A stretch of DNA of 64,000 bases, taken from sequence record MK327932.1; one strand, written 5' to 3'. Positions 2,727-18,412 of this stretch are shown one piece after another (position 1 is the first letter of the stretch; each line of letters starts with the position of its first letter). Under the pieces are notes generated by a model. The model searched no databases and was not told where the DNA came from. It worked only from the letters and a program-made list of their open reading frames with translations. The translations under genes were made by a program, and so were the position numbers. The DNA is from Escherichia phage vB_EcoM_G2248.

Positions 2727-4589
2727 TTACATGTGCTTAACGCGGTTTACCATCTCGGAGTGTTTCCCGTGGTTGAATGGACGCAGATCAACAGATCCAA
2801 GATATCCACTAACGCGACGGATAACATTCATCTTTTCCAGATTGTCATTGCCGCAATCAGGACAAACAAAACCAGACTCGGTCGCTCTCATTTCCTTAGT
2901 AGATCCGCATACATGACATACATCAGAAGGAGTATTAACACCGAAGTAGTGCAATTTATCCATTGCATAGTCTACTACAGTTTCAAGACCTTTCAGGTTG
3001 TTTTTCATGTCTGGGAACTCAACATAAGAGATCATGCCACCGGACGCCAGCCAGTGATAATCTTTCTCAAAGTCGATTTTCTCAAATGGAGTGACTTTCC
3101 GGTCTACGTCAAGGTGGAATGAGTTGGTGTACCAGTCTTTATCGGTAGCACCCTTAACAATACCAAATTGCTCTCGGTCCAGTCGATTAAATCGATAGCA
3201 AAGGCTCTCGGCTGGCGTACCGTAAAGACTAAACCCAAGTCCGGTTTCATCCTTCCATTTTTCAGTATAATGACGCAAGATCTTAAGAATATGTTTACCG
3301 TATCGCTGCGCATCTTCCGAATCAAACGGATGAACACCAAACAGGACGCTCAATACCTCATGTAAACCAATATATCCAAGAGAGATACTAGCGCGACCAT
3401 CTTTCAGAACTTCCAAAATTTCATCGTTTTGATGAATACGGAAAAATGCACCTTCTGTATACAGTACAGGAGCAACATTGGCTTTAGCCCCTTTTAAAGC
3501 GTCTACGCGACTCATGAGCGCATCAAAGCAAATAGGCATACGATTAGCTAGCTCTTGTTCGAATAGCTCAATTCTGCGCATTACAGACGCTTTACCAGCA
3601 CGACGCGCGGCAATAAGGGCAATACGCGGAAGATTTAGAGTCACAACACCTAAGTTATTACGTCCGTCTAATACTTCTTCGCCTTTCTCATTATGCCACA
3701 CACCCAGGAAGCTACGACAACCCATCGGGCTAACCGGAACACTAGATCCAGTGATACTACGGTTATTCTTCGCAGAGATATAATCAGGGTAAAGACGCTT
3801 ACTAGAACATTCCAATGCAAGTTGCTTAATGTCGTAGTTCGGATCTTCCGGTTTAAGGTTTAATCCTTCTTCTAAGAACATCACCAGCTTAGGAAACACC
3901 GGAGTTATACCGTCTTTACCTAAACCTTTAGTTCGAACTTTCAGGATCGCTTTCTGAATCAGTTTTTCTTCCCAGCTAGTACCCATACCAAAGGTTAAAG
4001 TCACAAAAGGCGTTTGACCGTTGGTGGAGAACAAAGTGTTGATTTCATATTCCAACGCTTGATACCCGTCTAGCGTTTCTTTTTCTGTCTTCTCTTGTGC
4101 ATAGAGAGTATCAGCTTTGATTCCGTAGGTTTCGGCATCAGCAAGGTGTTTATGATATGTTTTCTCAACGTATGGCGCTAAAACCTGATCGATGTTTGCA
4201 ATTGTGGTCCCGCCATATTGATGACTTGCCACCTGTGCGATAATTTGAGCGGTTACAGCACAAGCAACGCCGATCGATTTCGGACTTTCGATTTGTGCGC
4301 TACCCAATTTAAAACCATTCTCTAACATGTCTTTGAGATTAACAAGACAGCAGTTAGTAAACGGCATAGCGGGTGCATAATCCATATCATGATAATGAAT
4401 ATCACCATCTACATGCGCTTTATAGATGTGCTCAGGTAACACGGTTTTAGCAATCTGTTTAGACACAGCACCAGCAATCAGATCTCGACGTGTCGGGAAT
4501 GTTCGCGCGTCTTTGTTCGCGTTCTCTTTGCTTACTTCGTTTTCTTTACCCGTTGCGATCTCTGTAATGTCTTTGATTAGTTTTTCCAT
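2727..4589 (-). CDS. nrdD: anaerobic ribonucleoside-triphosphate reductase (glycyl radical enzyme)
   Basis: 620 aa; C-terminal zinc site CPDCG and glycyl radical motif RVSGYLG; single uninterrupted ORF. Confidence 0.9.
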   Translation of the reverse strand: MEKLIKDITEIATGKENEVSKENANKDARTFPTRRDLIAGAVSKQIAKTVLPEHIYKAHVDGDIHYHDMDYAPAMPFTNCCLVNLKDMLENGFKLGSAQIESPKSIGVACAVTAQIIAQVASHQYGGTTIANIDQVLAPYVEKTYHKHLADAETYGIKADTLYAQEKTEKETLDGYQALEYEINTLFSTNGQTPFVTLTFGMGTSWEEKLIQKAILKVRTKGLGKDGITPVFPKLVMFLEEGLNLKPEDPNYDIKQLALECSSKRLYPDYISAKNNRSITGSSVPVSPMGCRSFLGVWHNEKGEEVLDGRNNLGVVTLNLPRIALIAARRAGKASVMRRIELFEQELANRMPICFDALMSRVDALKGAKANVAPVLYTEGAFFRIHQNDEILEVLKDGRASISLGYIGLHEVLSVLFGVHPFDSEDAQRYGKHILKILRHYTEKWKDETGLGFSLYGTPAESLCYRFNRLDREQFGIVKGATDKDWYTNSFHLDVDRKVTPFEKIDFEKDYHWLASGGMISYVEFPDMKNNLKGLETVVDYAMDKLHYFGVNTPSDVCHVCGSTKEMRATESGFVCPDCGNDNLEKMNVIRRVSGYLGSVDLRPFNHGKHSEMVNRVKHM

Positions 4590-5187: not shown

Positions 5188-6362
5188 GCACTAACTTTTT
5201 TCTTTACTGCTTTCACCTTCTGGCGAATTGCTCGAATCTCTTCGATCTCTTTTTCAGTCTCTTTAACAATTTCTTTGCGATTCTGAATATCTGTATCTAG
5301 ATTATCATCAAGTTTAGGCAGCATGTCAATCAAGAACTTTTTAAAGTCTTTCAGGTTTCGGATAACAGCACCTTCACCCATTACCGCCACGCCTACACCA
5401 TCCGGCAGGTCGCCAAACAGTTTAACCAGTTCAGACAGATGATCATGATCTTCTAGTGCTTCTTCCGGTTCAGATGGCAGTTCCACAAAGTAATAACGTT
5501 CATCATTGCTGATCAGGTGATACCAGCAAAGCCCAAAAGATTTAGGAGTATATTCTACACCACCAACTTCAACTGCGTCAACACTTCCGAAAGAATCTAC
5601 TTTAGTTACCTTAAATCCATGTTCCAGCGTTTTAATAATTTCAATAACATGACTGGATACGGTTTCAGTATTAAACCAATGAGGCAAATTATGTGGATTT
5701 GGCTTGTATCGTTCGCCTACTTTAAATCTCTGACCACGCTCTTGCATACGGACATATTCAACTCGCGTGATTTCCGCGAAGTATTCAAATTCGCCACCGT
5801 CAAACACAGAAGCCCATTGATCACAAAAACGATCTGCCTTAACAGTTTCACCTTTCGCGGTGATCATGGTAGCTGATCCGTGCAATTCTTCTTCAACTAA
5901 AAAGCCATATTCGACAAAATCAACAAGTTTCATAGCTTCTTTGTGATCTGGATCATGCTCTCCCCAGAATCGCTTAAATTCTTGCAAACCTTCTGGGGTA
6001 AACGAATAACATTTACCTTTTTCAAAGTAAGTCGGCATTGCATCCTCTTTCTTGTTCATCGCTTCGTATGCCTCTTTTGAGATGCGTTTAAAGTATTTAC
6101 GCTCATTGTGCATAATCATAGTAGCCCAATAATCAACAATATCATTAGCGGAATAAACTACATCTCCAGCTTCAATAGTAATAACATGACCGTGGTCATC
6201 TTTTTCTAATACTTTAAAGCCCTTTTCTACGATTTCAGCAACACGAATATGACCACGGCGCGAAGCATCGGTCAGAATAATTGAATAGCGAGAAAAGTCT
6301 AGAAACTCATCTTTACCGCCTTCACGGAATGCATAGCAATGACCTTCAAAGAATTTAGCCAT
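5184..6362 (-). CDS. hypothetical protein with repeated ~65-aa domain (member of tandem paralog family)
   Basis: 392 aa; internal repeats share GF(K/L)V and NERKYFKRI motifs with the two following genes. Confidence 0.6.
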   Translation of the reverse strand: MAKFFEGHCYAFREGGKDEFLDFSRYSIILTDASRRGHIRVAEIVEKGFKVLEKDDHGHVITIEAGDVVYSANDIVDYWATMIMHNERKYFKRISKEAYEAMNKKEDAMPTYFEKGKCYSFTPEGLQEFKRFWGEHDPDHKEAMKLVDFVEYGFLVEEELHGSATMITAKGETVKADRFCDQWASVFDGGEFEYFAEITRVEYVRMQERGQRFKVGERYKPNPHNLPHWFNTETVSSHVIEIIKTLEHGFKVTKVDSFGSVDAVEVGGVEYTPKSFGLCWYHLISNDERYYFVELPSEPEEALEDHDHLSELVKLFGDLPDGVGVAVMGEGAVIRNLKDFKKFLIDMLPKLDDNLDTDIQNRKEIVKETEKEIEEIRAIRQKVKAVKKKVSA

Positions 6363-13280: not shown

Positions 13281-13308
13281 ATTATACGGGGATTTCTCCC
13301 CGTGTCAA
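13281..13308 (-). promoter_or_regulatory. PeSL-like early promoter (TTGACA, spacer hairpin CGGGGAGAAATCCCCG, TATAAT)
   Basis: Perfect hexamers 16 nt apart; spacer is the recurrent GGGGAGAAATCCCC hairpin. Confidence 0.6.
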
Positions 13309-14800: not shown

Positions 14801-14843
14801 TTGTCGATGTGTGCATTATGCTATACCCTATTCCGGTTGTCAA
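14801..14843 (-). promoter_or_regulatory. PeSL-like early promoter
   Basis: TTGACA at 14843..14838 with -10 CATAAT. Confidence 0.5.
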
Positions 14844-14850
14844 CACCTAA

Positions 14851-14883
14851 AAACGAAAAAGCCACCCTTTCGGATGGCTTTTT
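14851..14883. terminator. bidirectional rho-independent terminator
   Basis: Hairpin GCCACCCTTTCGGATGGC flanked by an A-run and a T-run; follows the stop of the 714-aa gene. Confidence 0.6.
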
Positions 14884-14892
14884 GATTATATT

Positions 14893-17037
14893 TTATTCAC
14901 GTCCATTTGTATAGTAGTGTTTGAATCGACCGTAACCAGTTTCAATGGTCATTGTTCTTTGGTGAACAATAGCCCAATAACCGTTACAGGAATCTTGCAG
15001 ATACAAATCTTTACCTTTCATAAACTCATTAAAGATTGTTTTCTGCCAGTCATAATAGACAGAATCTTCAATCTTATCCATCCAACCGTGTGGGTCTTCA
15101 AGCAGTTCAACAAGTTCATCGATAACCCAATACGGACACGGACTAAATCGACCTTTACTAAATTCGTTGAACACAGTAACGGTTTTAGCTTCCGGTCTAG
15201 GTTCATCAGGTTCTTCCGGTCGACGATTAACCACAACCTGAACATATTTTGTATAACCGATAATTTCCCCAGAGTCCAACTCATCGTTATTGTTCTGGTC
15301 AGCAAAAGCAACGAATCTATAGACTCCAGAGTCACCTATAGTAGCATTAACTTTTGTGTATATCGGTGTTTTGGGATCGATAATCGGCAACCGAACACCA
15401 TTTTTACTAAACTCATACGTTGGAACGTATGTAGAAGGAGGATTTAATGTCGTTGCTTCTAATGTCAAAGTATCCCCTTCCATAATCTGTACAGGATGAG
15501 GTCCGTCAAATTCCATATTAGGAACAACTTCAACATTATAGGTTGCACGCCCTGCAATATCATAATCATGATGCGCACTATATGGGTCTACACTAGGACT
15601 ATCTCTATATTCATGCGCCCAAATGCCATTATGTTCACGATCCGCAGAGTCAGTAATTTTATACTCTTTAGCCTCAATTGGTAGTTCGGTCACAAAAACA
15701 TCATTTTTTGTTATAACCAAAGAACGAGTTTGAGTAAAATCGCTACTTGCGGGTGGCTCTGGATCGACGATCTTAATAACAATAGGTTCACCAACCTCAA
15801 TATTTCGATAATCGTATTCTTTGTCATAAATGTCAAGCATACGACGGTCGTAAAATAATGGCCTTCCTTTATTGAGGTCATATGCACCATCTTGATTAGA
15901 AGGGGCAACTAGTAATTGTAAAGCAACGCTATTATCATACTGCAAGTCCGATAAAGTAATTCGGTCATAACCTTCATCGCCATATTTTTTGCTTTGTAGA
16001 GTTTTACCACCCAACATCCACGTAAAATAAACATTATTATTAATCAAACTATAATGTCGATTCCACGTATTATCGGATGTTACTAATGGCATATCTAGAT
16101 TGACGGTGGACCCAGAAGGATAACGAAATTCAACGGAATTAAAATCACGATCAAAAAATTCATTGTCTTTGATTGTTACCGTGAATCTATGACGATCACC
16201 ATCAATATATGCTGTCCCTTCTCTGGTTTCACTTGCGGCCTTATATGCACGAACCAAAGCAACATAAACACCCGCATCGGTTTCTTGAGCATGTTTCGTT
16301 ACAAACAGAGTCCTGTCTGTAGATTCATAAATTAAGCTACCATCTTCTCTTTCCAGACGATAACGGACAACGGTATATTCATCATTGGCGGGAGAATCGT
16401 CTGTCACCGTAAAATAGACAGGAGCATATTTCTGTGCGTTAAAAATTTCCGCGCTTTCCTGAATGGTGGCCTCAAACGGATAAACAAATTTCACGTCACC
16501 CGCTTCATCGCTAAGTTCCATTCTATATGTGCCAGAAAATTCAGGCCATGCAAATTTTGCAATTTTAAATTCACGATGGTCTAAACCAAGATCCCCGTCA
16601 ATAGTATCAACAAGACCGTCATTATAATAAAGGTCGATAGAAATGTTTTCTGGGATATGAATACGAAAAACAATTTTAGCCTTTATTTCGTCACCAACCA
16701 CAAAGGAAGTTGGAGGATATACATATTCAACATACTGATTATCAAATAATTCAAATGTGAAATTTTCCGTGCCGATATCAACGGATTCACCAGCAAAATC
16801 ATTATCATCTTGGGCATAGCCACGAACATTAACAGACCATCCTGTTTTATCGCTTTCTTTCACAGATTTTAATTCAAAAGACGGTGTATCGGTTGTAGCA
16901 ACAACCACCCCACCTTTTTTCCAAACATAACCTTTTTTCGGTTTAGTTGGATCATCTGATTCGGCAGCAATTGAGCACGCGAACGTATGAGGAAGCCAAA
17001 TGGTTGTGTTAATGCTAGTATCTTTTACTTCTGGCAT
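14893..17037 (-). CDS. large hypothetical protein (714 aa)
   Basis: Long ORF, ATG 17037 with RBS AGGGGGA; no counterpart recognised among T4 genes. Confidence 0.6.
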   Translation of the reverse strand: MPEVKDTSINTTIWLPHTFACSIAAESDDPTKPKKGYVWKKGGVVVATTDTPSFELKSVKESDKTGWSVNVRGYAQDDNDFAGESVDIGTENFTFELFDNQYVEYVYPPTSFVVGDEIKAKIVFRIHIPENISIDLYYNDGLVDTIDGDLGLDHREFKIAKFAWPEFSGTYRMELSDEAGDVKFVYPFEATIQESAEIFNAQKYAPVYFTVTDDSPANDEYTVVRYRLEREDGSLIYESTDRTLFVTKHAQETDAGVYVALVRAYKAASETREGTAYIDGDRHRFTVTIKDNEFFDRDFNSVEFRYPSGSTVNLDMPLVTSDNTWNRHYSLINNNVYFTWMLGGKTLQSKKYGDEGYDRITLSDLQYDNSVALQLLVAPSNQDGAYDLNKGRPLFYDRRMLDIYDKEYDYRNIEVGEPIVIKIVDPEPPASSDFTQTRSLVITKNDVFVTELPIEAKEYKITDSADREHNGIWAHEYRDSPSVDPYSAHHDYDIAGRATYNVEVVPNMEFDGPHPVQIMEGDTLTLEATTLNPPSTYVPTYEFSKNGVRLPIIDPKTPIYTKVNATIGDSGVYRFVAFADQNNNDELDSGEIIGYTKYVQVVVNRRPEEPDEPRPEAKTVTVFNEFSKGRFSPCPYWVIDELVELLEDPHGWMDKIEDSVYYDWQKTIFNEFMKGKDLYLQDSCNGYWAIVHQRTMTIETGYGRFKHYYTNGRE

Positions 17038-17059
17038 GTATTCCCCCTTGTGACTGGCA

Positions 17060-17458
17060 TTAAGCCAGTCGAGTGAGTTTATAAATGGTTTTAAAGCATA
17101 GAGCTTTGATATCGTCTAAAACGCTCTGTAACGAGCTATCAACATCATTATAAATCTCACTAGCCATTTGCGTTAACTCTTGCAAATAGGCAATTTCGCT
17201 AATCTCCTTGCGGACGACCAACGTTGGTTGATAACGACCAGTGATCCCAATATTGGTTTCAGTGAAATTATCAACCAATTCTTGCATTTCAAGATAGAAC
17301 TCTTCTAGCGCCTTATGTTTTGCATAAGAACCAGGACCAGTCACCCCAAAATGCGCAGAATGCATATAAGTAACACTCATCAGACATTCACCGATAAAGC
17401 GGTCAACTTTATTAGCTTTCCCGTCTTCGGACGTCTTTCGAAAATCACTGAATTTCAT
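17060..17458 (-). CDS. hypothetical protein
   Basis: Start placed at ATG 17458 behind RBS GGAGAATC. Confidence 0.45.
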   Translation of the reverse strand: MKFSDFRKTSEDGKANKVDRFIGECLMSVTYMHSAHFGVTGPGSYAKHKALEEFYLEMQELVDNFTETNIGITGRYQPTLVVRKEISEIAYLQELTQMASEIYNDVDSSLQSVLDDIKALCFKTIYKLTRLA

Positions 17459-17747
17459 GTTCTCGATTCTCCATATTATGCAACATAACAAATTGGTTTG
17501 CGGCATATTCCCCCATAATAAAACACTGCTTAGAGTCCATACATTTACTACGAGCGTACATCTTCATAATGTGGGCATGAAATTTCTGGCTGGTTTCAAT
17601 GGAAGGAGATATTTTGTTTACATATACTATCATCGCACCGTCGAAATAATCAGTAAAGTCACCAGTTAGATCATATTGATCAGCACTGACACTTCCGACC
17701 GCTGTCAAGCATATTGCCGTTGTTAGAGTTTTACGAATAAATGACAT
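17445..17747 (-). CDS. rI-like lysis-inhibition regulator candidate (signal-anchor plus periplasmic domain)
   Basis: N-terminal hydrophobic segment; Y-x3-C-x5-C-x3-G-x2-A-x-Q pattern resembles T4 RI (from memory); lies just downstream of tk. Confidence 0.4.
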   Translation of the reverse strand: MSFIRKTLTTAICLTAVGSVSADQYDLTGDFTDYFDGAMIVYVNKISPSIETSQKFHAHIMKMYARSKCMDSKQCFIMGEYAANQFVMLHNMENREHEIQ

Positions 17748-17780
17748 GAGTCATTCCCCCAGATTGAAAATATTCAGTTA

Positions 17781-17788
17781 TATTTATA
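17781..17788 (-). promoter_or_regulatory. late promoter TATAAATA
   Basis: Exact TATAAATA on the minus strand about 33 nt upstream of ATG 17747. Confidence 0.5.
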
Positions 17789-17815
17789 ATCTGGGGCTTT
17801 ATTTATGATTAACTC

Positions 17816-18412
17816 TTAGTTGGTAGTGCCGTCAATAAAATGTTTACGGCACACAGAAACATATTTATCCTCTGCACCAACTTCTATTTGAGCACCATCG
17901 CGAACAACATTACCCTCTTTATCTACACGAAGGACCATAGTTGCTTTCTTACCGCAATGACAAATACCCTTCATTTCGACCAGTTTATCAGCAAATGCCA
18001 TCAATGCCGCAGATCCTTCAAATAGATTGCCCTGAAAGTCGGTGCGAAGCCCATAACACAAAACAGGGATATTGGCATCATCAACCAGTGCACACAAGCC
18101 TAAAACATGCTCTTTAGTCATAAATTGGGCTTCATCTACAAACACAGCAGCAGGACGCCAGCGATCTGGTCTACGCTTACCTAGTGATTCACGATAAACC
18201 AAATCGAAAAGATCATCTGATTTAGTGAATGTGATCGCTGGAGCACTTAGACCAATTCGGGAAACAACTTCACTCTCTGAATCTCGATTATCAATCGCTG
18301 GCTTAAGAATCAATACTCGCATATCACGTTCGGTATAGTTATAAGCACTTTGTAACAGAGAAGTTGATTTGCCAGCGTTCATAGATGCATAGTAGAAATA
18401 TAATTGCGCCAT
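17816..18412 (-). CDS. tk: thymidine kinase
   Basis: P-loop SMNAGKST, VDEAQF and a C-terminal Cys cluster typical of thymidine kinase. Confidence 0.85.
   Translation of the reverse strand: MAQLYFYYASMNAGKSTSLLQSAYNYTERDMRVLILKPAIDNRDSESEVVSRIGLSAPAITFTKSDDLFDLVYRESLGKRRPDRWRPAAVFVDEAQFMTKEHVLGLCALVDDANIPVLCYGLRTDFQGNLFEGSAALMAFADKLVEMKGICHCGKKATMVLRVDKEGNVVRDGAQIEVGAEDKYVSVCRKHFIDGTTN

Follow-up and report, generated by a model that had tools for sequence, protein, structure and literature searches.

What is encoded by the long open reading frame (ORF) that follows the lysis-inhibition gene rI in an RB49-like coliphage? We examined this question in a 64,000-nt stretch of DNA from Escherichia phage vB_EcoM_G2248 (record MK327932.1; hereafter the window), a T4-type coliphage of the RB49-like genus Krischvirus. 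The ORF comprises 714 amino acids (aa), begins with ATG and lies on the minus strand (14893..17037). The exact protein falls in a 90%-identity cluster together with QBO62239.1 ('hypothetical protein G2248_00084', Escherichia phage vB_EcoM_G2248), and BFVD entry A0A482GFY1, of 714 aa, is listed as 100% identical; members of the family are labelled 'hypothetical protein' or 'immunoglobulin domain-containing protein'. A first-pass annotation made from the sequence alone had suggested a late-expressed virion-associated or decoration protein. The decoration-protein guess agrees with what we report here, namely a C-terminus that is homologous by sequence to the capsid-binding domain of Hoc (highly immunogenic outer capsid protein), preceded by six predicted immunoglobulin (Ig)-like domains. 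We propose that the product of the ORF is probably a second and longer Hoc-family protein, a non-essential head-decoration fibre, for which we infer both a virion location and late timing.

A Hoc-type anchor at the C-terminus

The most conserved part of the protein (aa 620-705; 14923..15180, minus strand) is a predicted Hoc-type C-terminal capsid-binding domain (CTD), or anchor. The full protein matched the profile phrog_1149 'Hoc-like head decoration' over residues 478-698 (E=4.3e-11), and the last 109 residues alone matched it with E=1.7e-8 at profile positions 1076-1145 of 1150, the same C-terminal end on which the CTD of RB49 Hoc falls. Among PDB sequences, the best phmmer match was T4 Hoc (5vf3_Z, E=7e-4), spanning the last Ig domain and the CTD, with CPYWVIDEL aligned to CGWWVMDEI and QDSCNGY to QESRNGY. 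Profile-profile comparison by hhalign with the Hoc proteins of T4, RB69 and RB49 gave a probability of 83% (E=9e-6). A tblastn search with the C-terminal 211 residues recovered matches in 732 T4-like phage records, and in 60 rows sampled across their ranking (Tequatrovirus, Mosigvirus, Slopekvirus and others) nearly all matches fell on a gene annotated as hoc, outer capsid or head decoration. All four approaches point to homology with the capsid-binding domain, and every protein with a functional name that was recovered by the CTD profile is a head-decoration or outer-capsid protein.

The Hoc signature residues W637, D640, W652, Y661, Q681, S683, N685, G686 and Y687 are kept. In an alignment of 58 CTD sequences, W637, D640, W652, Y661, S683, N685 and G686 are invariant or nearly so across canonical Hocs and the long family together. 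The 15 homologues of the long protein show no variation at W637, D640, S683, N685, G686 and Y687, and all of these except Y687 are among the (nearly) invariant positions of the larger alignment. In T4 Hoc, W310, D313 and the loop S356-x-N358-G359-Y360 make up a core on the capsomer axis (Fokine et al. 2023, PMC10385173), and these core residues are present in the 714-aa protein.

A model of the CTD built on a Hoc-rich alignment had a predicted local distance difference test score (pLDDT) of 74. Its top and only credible PDB match in Foldseek was 8t1x_X (probability 1.00, E=0.012, template modelling (TM) scores 0.48/0.53), the remaining PDB matches having probabilities of 0.3 or less. This entry is the CTD of T4 Hoc bound to gp23*, with a fold of beta-beta, helices, beta-beta. 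Because canonical Hocs dominate the alignment behind the model, this result is partly circular, and we count it as consistent with the homology, not decisive for it.

Six predicted Ig-like domains

The remainder of the protein is a fibre part (15223..17037, minus strand) that is predicted, in the AlphaFold2 (AF2) model, to fold into six Ig-like beta-sandwich domains: D1 (aa 1-97, 17037-16747), D2 (aa 98-192, 16746-16462), D3 (aa 193-292, 16461-16162), D4 (aa 293-404, 16161-15826), D5 (aa 405-505, 15825-15523) and D6 (aa 506-605, 15522-15223). A proline- and acid-rich linker, RPEEPDEPRPEAKT (aa 606-619; 15181..15222, minus strand), has a pLDDT below 50 and no secondary structure, and is predicted to be disordered. 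Beyond the anchor, the protein ends in a variable C-terminal tail, which together with the stop codon occupies 14893..14922 (aa 706-714, minus strand). The mean pLDDT of the full-length model was 77, with values of 85-94 across the first 260 residues. The best solved Foldseek matches of the full model were six-Ig ectodomains such as contactin Ig1-6 (E ~1e-18); since the model is elongated, such whole-model searches return generic Ig-repeat proteins at low TM. In an exhaustive profile search of 1.8 billion representative proteins, D1 and D6 matched Ig_3/I-set repeat proteins. The AF2 prediction, the Foldseek matches and the profile matches agree on the linear N-terminal string of Ig-like domains that is typical of Hoc, and the structure prediction that the first-pass annotation had recommended as a check for Ig-like or beta-sandwich repeats returned six predicted sandwiches.

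The protein has a mass of 81.8 kDa and a pI (isoelectric point) of 4.62, each of its domains having a pI of 4.3-5.1. It shares the acidity (pI ~4-5) that is a trait of Hoc proteins, for which a range of 4.23-5.16 has been published (PMC10385173). A Pfam scan found no enzymatic domain in the 714-aa protein, and the clear enzymatic assignment that had been named as speaking against a decoration protein did not arise. The only match of the whole protein in that scan was an insignificant one to DUF7151. This negative is uninformative as regards the anchor, because Pfam holds no model of it; T4 and RB49 Hoc themselves match only Ig/PKD models.

A narrow family, under purifying selection and repeatedly lost

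A word-seeded search of 5.8 billion proteins returned only 15 clusters at 90% identity, all of them full-length (706-718 aa) and 58-100% identical, and the exhaustive profile search found only two representatives at the 50% level. Additions from the latter were a 708-aa representative (P0016), the Phi1-type remnant and many unrelated multi-Ig proteins that were reached through D1 or D6. Mean pairwise identity within the family is 86% in the anchor, 76-78% in D2, D5 and D6, 67-69% in D3 and D4, and 61% in the distal D1. With the anchor most conserved and D1 most variable, this gradient matches the pattern described for Hoc, a conserved anchor carrying a variable Ig string (Fokine et al. 2023, PMC10385173).

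Relative to the homologue of phage Brandy, the ratio of non-synonymous to synonymous substitution rates (dN/dS) is 0.106 for the whole gene, with 0.05 for the anchor and 0.18 for D1; dS, at 1.35, is nearly saturated. So low a ratio at nearly saturated dS indicates a gene that is functional and old. A pseudogene or a chance ORF was also considered and is ruled out by the dN/dS of ~0.1 together with a start codon and Shine-Dalgarno sequence that are intact only in gene-bearing phages.

Within the 6.5 kb around the ORF, both flanks are 96-97% identical to RB49, Phi1, JSE and other Krischvirus genomes, and most of the ORF itself is missing from these same genomes. What is left in RB49 (L002 3468-3700) corresponds to codons 1-40, 620-631 and 703-714, and in Phi1 (L004 2899-3201) to codons 1-27 and 652-714. 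In both phages the start codon has changed from ATG to ATA and the Shine-Dalgarno sequence has decayed, while the two elements are intact in gene-bearing phages (in the window, GGGGG at 17043..17047, minus strand). The second deletion junction of RB49 lies at a repeated 'ggtcgatt' motif (the SKGRF / GYGRF codons), and the 42-aa 'ORF084.1' annotated in Phi1 is the C-terminal remnant of the Hoc-like anchor. The gene was accordingly ancestral to Krischvirus and decayed along separate paths in lineages that are still fully viable. Its dispensability is indicated by this natural loss, with RB49, Phi1 and most Krischvirus isolates keeping only remnants.

Between phages, the ORF has diverged much more than the DNA around it: compared with Brandy, it has 78% protein identity and a dS of ~1.35, in a region whose flanks are 96-97% identical to RB49-type genomes. 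The locus may have undergone mosaic exchange, or old allelic lineages may persist there.

A paralogue of the ordinary hoc gene

An ordinary hoc gene of 404 aa lies next to inh in all Krischvirus genomes of the phage collection (58/58). The long gene is intact in five complete Krischvirus genomes (Brandy, JK32, SSG23, SFHK24 and UPWr_E1), each of which also carries the 404-aa hoc. Since the 404-aa gene occupies the hoc locus, also in these five genomes, the long gene is a paralogue and not an orthologue of hoc. The first-pass annotation recognised no T4 counterpart of the ORF; the T4 Hoc family is that counterpart, although the relationship is one of paralogy, at another locus. The window ends just past an ORF taken as gene 22, at the presumed start of gene 23, so the hoc locus lies outside it, and we infer from relatives that vB_EcoM_G2248 carries both genes.

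The long protein resembles T4 Hoc (5vf3_Z, 8t1x_X) in its C-terminal capsid-binding domain of ~90 residues with the signature W-x2-D ... W ... Y ... S-x-N-G-Y, and likewise in its N-terminal Ig-like string, acidic pI, non-essential nature, late-promoter context and combination of a conserved anchor with a variable fibre. In contrast, T4 Hoc has three Ig-like domains and 376 aa, versus six and 714 aa here, and the two share ~30% identity over ~68 CTD residues. The YVHP strand and R300 of T4 Hoc are not conserved in the long protein, R357 of its ESRNG motif is an invariant Cys, and hoc lies between gene 24 and inh, whereas the long gene stands at the end of the rI operon. The canonical 404-aa Hoc of RB49 and other Krischvirus members belongs to the same family and occurs in the same genomes, but it also shares only ~30% identity with the long protein, over 64 CTD residues. 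All 58 genomes have it, whereas only five have an intact long gene and in the others that gene is decayed. The crystal structure of the three Ig domains of RB49 Hoc has been reported (PMC10385173).

Long and duplicated Hocs have precedents. Fokine et al. (2023, PMC10385173) described ~650 Hoc homologues with up to 10 Ig domains, as well as phages with two Hocs, Muldoon and PG7. Serratia phage Muldoon (a 1174-aa, 10-Ig Hoc and a 314-aa Hoc) and Enterobacter phage PG7 resemble the present case in that one genome encodes two proteins with the Hoc anchor, one long and one short, whose numbers of Ig domains vary. They belong to other genera, and differ from the case described here, with its separate locus in the rI operon, much more divergent anchor and repeated decay within one genus. 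T5 pb10 and other Ig decoration proteins of the hexamer centre likewise combine a capsid-anchoring domain with an exposed Ig-like domain, but the phmmer matches to them concern D6 only (5lxk_A, 8zvi_a, 'Decoration protein'), with E-values of 0.14-0.4 that are not significant, and homology of the anchors is not demonstrated. Literature searches for Krischvirus virion proteomics or for a second Hoc in Krischvirus found nothing.

The last gene of the rI operon

On the minus strand, the gene order is tk (17816-18412, with its stop at 17816), a late promoter, rI, rI.-1, the 714-aa ORF, a terminator and a new early promoter. The layout claimed by the first-pass annotation, in which a late promoter precedes an rI-like gene, a 132-aa ORF and the 714-aa ORF, was found element by element. 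The rI gene (17445..17747, minus strand) encodes an antiholin of 100 aa (lysis inhibition; Pfam Antiholin PF24205, E=1.8e-22; phrog_1246, E=2.2e-25). The 132-aa ORF (17060..17458, minus strand) encodes a DUF5856 protein (PF19174, E=7.8e-21; phrog_858, E=1.7e-43) for which the name rI.-1 is already in use in the annotations of RB49 and Phi1, and its start overlaps the 3' end of rI. A metagenomic relative whose ORF is 58% identical (L005) has the same order of tk, rI, rI.-1, ORF, terminator and early promoter, and different genes downstream.

The T4-type late promoter TATAAATA (17781..17788, minus strand) lies between the tk stop and the rI ATG, 33 nt upstream of the rI start. The motif occurs seven times in the window against 6.25 expected, i.e. 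at chance level, and five of the seven copies precede an ATG-started ORF of their own strand by 27-33 nt; two of these ORFs are taken as the sheath and scaffold genes, judged from size and order. It is this placement, and not the motif count, that makes the copy before rI credible. The copy is conserved in RB49, Phi1, Brandy and L005, and in L005 it is unchanged although the intergenic sequence around it differs. Between 17781 and the end of the 714-aa ORF there is no second motif resembling a late promoter, even at one mismatch, and the terminator scan found no terminator-like site on the minus strand between the late promoter and 14883. The ORF lies in this way downstream of a late motif that is spaced from rI like other late-gene motifs in the window, with no terminator between. 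A sigma-70-like site inside rI.-1 (17176..17147, 10/12 matches) was set aside as background, the window containing 30 such sites where 20.8 ± 4.2 are expected.

The unit of rI, rI.-1 and the Hoc-like gene is closed by an intrinsic terminator (14856..14883, minus strand) with a 12-bp stem and a U-run (z-score, z=-5.0). The first-pass annotation had called it bidirectional. In support, the stem is flanked by A- and T-runs on both sides; in contrast, where the minus-strand RNA has a G.U pair, plus-strand RNA would have a C.A mismatch, the terminator is reported by the scan on the minus strand only, and no plus-strand gene converges on the site. The word 'bidirectional' suits the form of the site better than its function. 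On its downstream side, the unit is bounded by the sigma-70-type early promoter of the next gene, TTGACA-17-CATAAT (14815..14843, minus strand). L005 has an analogous but unrelated terminator at the same place, and TTGACA-17-TATAAT at the position matching this promoter.

With a sole late motif upstream, no intervening terminator, and a closing terminator followed by an early promoter, the 714-aa ORF reads as the last cistron of the rI operon. In T4, a late promoter lies between the tk and rI genes, and an early promoter lies 3.3 kb upstream (Golec et al. 2010, PMC2962797), a precedent that extends to the rI operon only. By analogy, late expression of the ORF is the natural expectation, and early read-through RNA carrying it is likely. 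What had been termed a probable late operon does possess its late promoter, but is better called the known rI operon, probably also read through from early promoters. The T4 operon (rI.1 - rI - rI.-1; PMC2962797) agrees with the present one in its strand and in the succession of tk, late promoter, rI and rI.-1; unlike in T4, there is no rI.1 between promoter and rI, and the Hoc-like gene is added before the terminator.

Two RNA hairpins belong to this unit. The first, formed by CCCCAGAUU and AAUCUGGGG (17757..17796, minus strand), carries the late promoter in its loop (-25.5 kcal/mol, z=-6.2, 0/200 shuffles as stable), and its 3' arm abuts or overlaps the Shine-Dalgarno sequence of rI. Because the 5' arm would be missing from transcripts that begin at the late promoter, the hairpin should exist only on read-through (early) RNA. 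On RNA read through from tk it could, by analogy, mask the ribosome-binding site of rI; the layout presumably resembles the e/soc/I-TevI design of T4 for late-only translation. The hairpin is conserved in RB49, Phi1 and Brandy, and the version in L005 shows one compensatory change from G-C to A-U and one mismatch.

The second, a 7-bp hairpin (GACUGGC-UUAAU-GCCAGUC; 17052..17070, minus strand, z=-3.0), holds the TAA stop of rI.-1 in its loop. Such a hairpin around the upstream stop codon had been noticed before, at a given distance of 15 nt from the ORF start; it is present, and it ends 14 nt before the ATG at 17037. All five sequences compared have it (the window, RB49 at L002 ~3456-3474, Phi1, Brandy, and L005 at ~5969-5985), those other than the window showing G.U wobbles or changes. 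The loop of L005 has TGA in place of TAA, and the hairpin survives in RB49 and Phi1 although the downstream gene is dead there.

Proposed mode of action and alternative roles

According to our proposal, the gene would be transcribed late from TATAAATA between tk and rI, as the last cistron of the rI operon, and probably also be carried on early read-through RNA. The monomeric 82-kDa protein would then dock through its CTD on expanded capsids, by homology most likely at the centre of the gp23* hexamer like T4 Hoc. This position is suggested because the S-x-N-G loop and the W/D helix start, which lie on the T4 capsomer axis (PMC10385173), are conserved in the anchor. One long protein would bind per hexamer in competition with the 404-aa Hoc, giving a mixed coat. 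From the anchor, the proline-rich linker and the six tandem Ig-like domains are modelled to project as an extended fibre of perhaps 25-30 nm, a length estimated from the three-Ig fibre of T4 Hoc, which measures 18 nm (PMC10385173). The acidic, rapidly diverging distal domains may let virions adhere weakly, in an environment-specific way, to mucus, glycans or cell surfaces and may keep them dispersed by electrostatic repulsion, in line with the roles of weak adhesion and electrostatic dispersal proposed for Hoc (PMC10385173), and would be non-essential for growth.

Several observations weigh against this proposal. Y293 and H295 (of the YVHP strand), R300, W309 and R357 of T4 Hoc, all outside the core discussed above, are not conserved in the anchor: the YVHP strand is replaced by TVTVF after a 10-residue insertion, R300 has no aligned Arg, W309 is replaced by Y636 and R357 by C684. 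In addition, the scores of the CTD model (TM ~0.5, Foldseek E 0.012) are modest and its resemblance to Hoc is partly built in, and full-length AF2 on the shallow alignment of the family itself left the anchor unresolved (CTD pLDDT 35-68). The exhaustive search of 1.8 billion proteins with the profile of the whole protein returned no canonical Hoc via the CTD. Finally, the gene is not in the orthologous position, being near tk after rI.-1 and away from the hoc locus, and ~750 nt with two genes separate it from the late promoter.

The missing contact residues bear most directly on the docking site. In T4 Hoc, Y293, H295, R300 and R357 are highly conserved capsid contacts or loop stabilisers, R357 pairing with D313 (PMC10385173). 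The canonical 404-aa Krischvirus Hoc keeps YVHP, WR, WW and ESRNG, whereas the YVHP strand, R300 and R357 are replaced in 15/15 members of the long family. With several canonical contact residues replaced, binding of the long protein at the same site is not assured. A Hoc-derived decoration protein could instead dock elsewhere (another capsomer position, the gp24 vertices or a non-capsid part of the virion), and both fibres would coexist without competition. Apart from these replacements, such an arrangement would make it easier to understand why the short hoc is kept in every complete genome with the long gene, the two proteins being non-redundant, and it is also favoured by two invariant cysteines specific to the long-protein CTD. 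We nevertheless regard it as rather unlikely, since W637, D640, S683, N685, G686 and Y687, the capsomer-axis core (PMC10385173), are kept, and two-Hoc phages of the Muldoon type have been interpreted in the literature as sharing sites (PMC10385173). Furthermore, Brandy, where the gene is present, and RB49, where it has decayed, do not differ in the part of gp23 that corresponds by homology to the Hoc-docking loop of T4, and accordingly there is no sign of a co-adapted docking site. Over the gp23 sequences of these two phages (L011:2-1123 vs L010:779-2365) there are 22 aa differences, mostly in residues 156-250, the rest being nearly identical.

The cysteines permit a further variant. The protein contains three, C21, C634 and C684, each invariant in the 15 homologues. 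C634 (window ~15136-15138, minus strand) aligns with C307 of T4 Hoc, and C684 (~14986-14988, minus strand) stands in place of the conserved R357 in the ESRNG loop. A structural role for C634 and C684, for instance as a disulfide, is conceivable, and C684 may pair with the second invariant Cys of the anchor. That the altered anchor targets a different capsid position, or locks covalently or in a redox-dependent manner after lysis, so as to build a two-tier coat of short and long fibres, seems to us unlikely. If true, short and long fibres would stand on one head in an arrangement not yet described for T4-like phages, and the role of the long protein would go beyond that of an extended Hoc in competition for the same 155 sites.

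We consider it very improbable that the product is a non-virion Ig-repeat protein, for instance a binder of host or environmental surfaces that is released at lysis, or a protein acting within the infected cell, that reuses the Hoc-like domain for another partner. The location among early and accessory genes, beside lysis-timing genes, the probable early read-through transcription and the divergent anchor motifs would all suit such a protein. In contrast, the 714-aa sequence shows no signal peptide or membrane segment, purifying selection is strongest precisely on the Hoc-type anchor, the functionally named proteins recovered by the CTD profile are all of the head-decoration or outer-capsid kind, and architecture, acidity and conservation gradient all copy Hoc. 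A receptor-binding accessory of the tail-fibre, whisker or adhesin type is highly implausible: RB49-type genomes do carry a gp38-type adhesin gene on the same strand, ~2 kb downstream, and several Foldseek and tblastn matches are labelled 'tail' ('tail fibers', 'tail protein'), but these labels sit on hoc-locus genes and look like misannotations, the 714-aa protein is predicted to be a string of monomeric Ig domains that lacks trimerisation, collagen-like or beta-helix fibre features, and its C-terminal domain matches the Hoc anchor and not a fibre tip.

Implications and further observations at the locus

A second Hoc-type decoration fibre would give a proposed function to a gene labelled 'hypothetical protein' or 'immunoglobulin domain-containing protein' in public records, and would mean that some RB49-like coliphages possess two fibres of the Hoc family that differ in length. 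The gene is most likely a so far unrecognised member of a known protein family, and not a new kind of system, and current concepts are unchanged because long and duplicated Hocs are already documented. Its distinctive points are the separate locus in the rI operon, the unusually divergent anchor and the recurrent decay within one genus. These phages would offer a tractable system in E. coli for asking how capsid sites are shared or divided between two decoration proteins, what effect the length of the fibre and the variation of its distal domain have on adherence to mucus or surfaces, and why the long Hoc-like gene has repeatedly been lost in some lineages. A naturally longer scaffold of anchor plus spacer could also serve phage display and vaccine engineering.

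Other Hoc-like and capsid-region genes were encountered in the genomes compared. Many T4-like phages encode short Hoc-like proteins (P0112-P0141), some with an N-terminal anchor followed by Ig or Big_2-type domains, and in some genomes, such as that of Klebsiella phage Matisse (L009 1462-2281), two of them are neighbours. The Hoc anchor serves as a modular handle for capsid display, which Fokine et al. (2023) had remarked on for PG7. In the larger Krischvirus genomes with the long Hoc-like gene, Brandy (L011 1285-4279) and JK32 (L012 1-4266), the major capsid gene 23 and gene 24 are separated by three or four additional genes, where RB49 has only a 50-aa ORF; the insert of JK32 includes a 614-aa 'tropomyosin-like protein'.

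Further downstream in the window, a perfect sigma-70 consensus promoter (TTGACA-16-TATAAT, 12/12 matches) lies at 13281-13308 on the minus strand. By analogy with RB49, this region would be upstream of the gp38-type adhesin gene, and if the analogy holds, a tail-fibre adhesin gene is placed among early genes, on the early strand, in Krischvirus.

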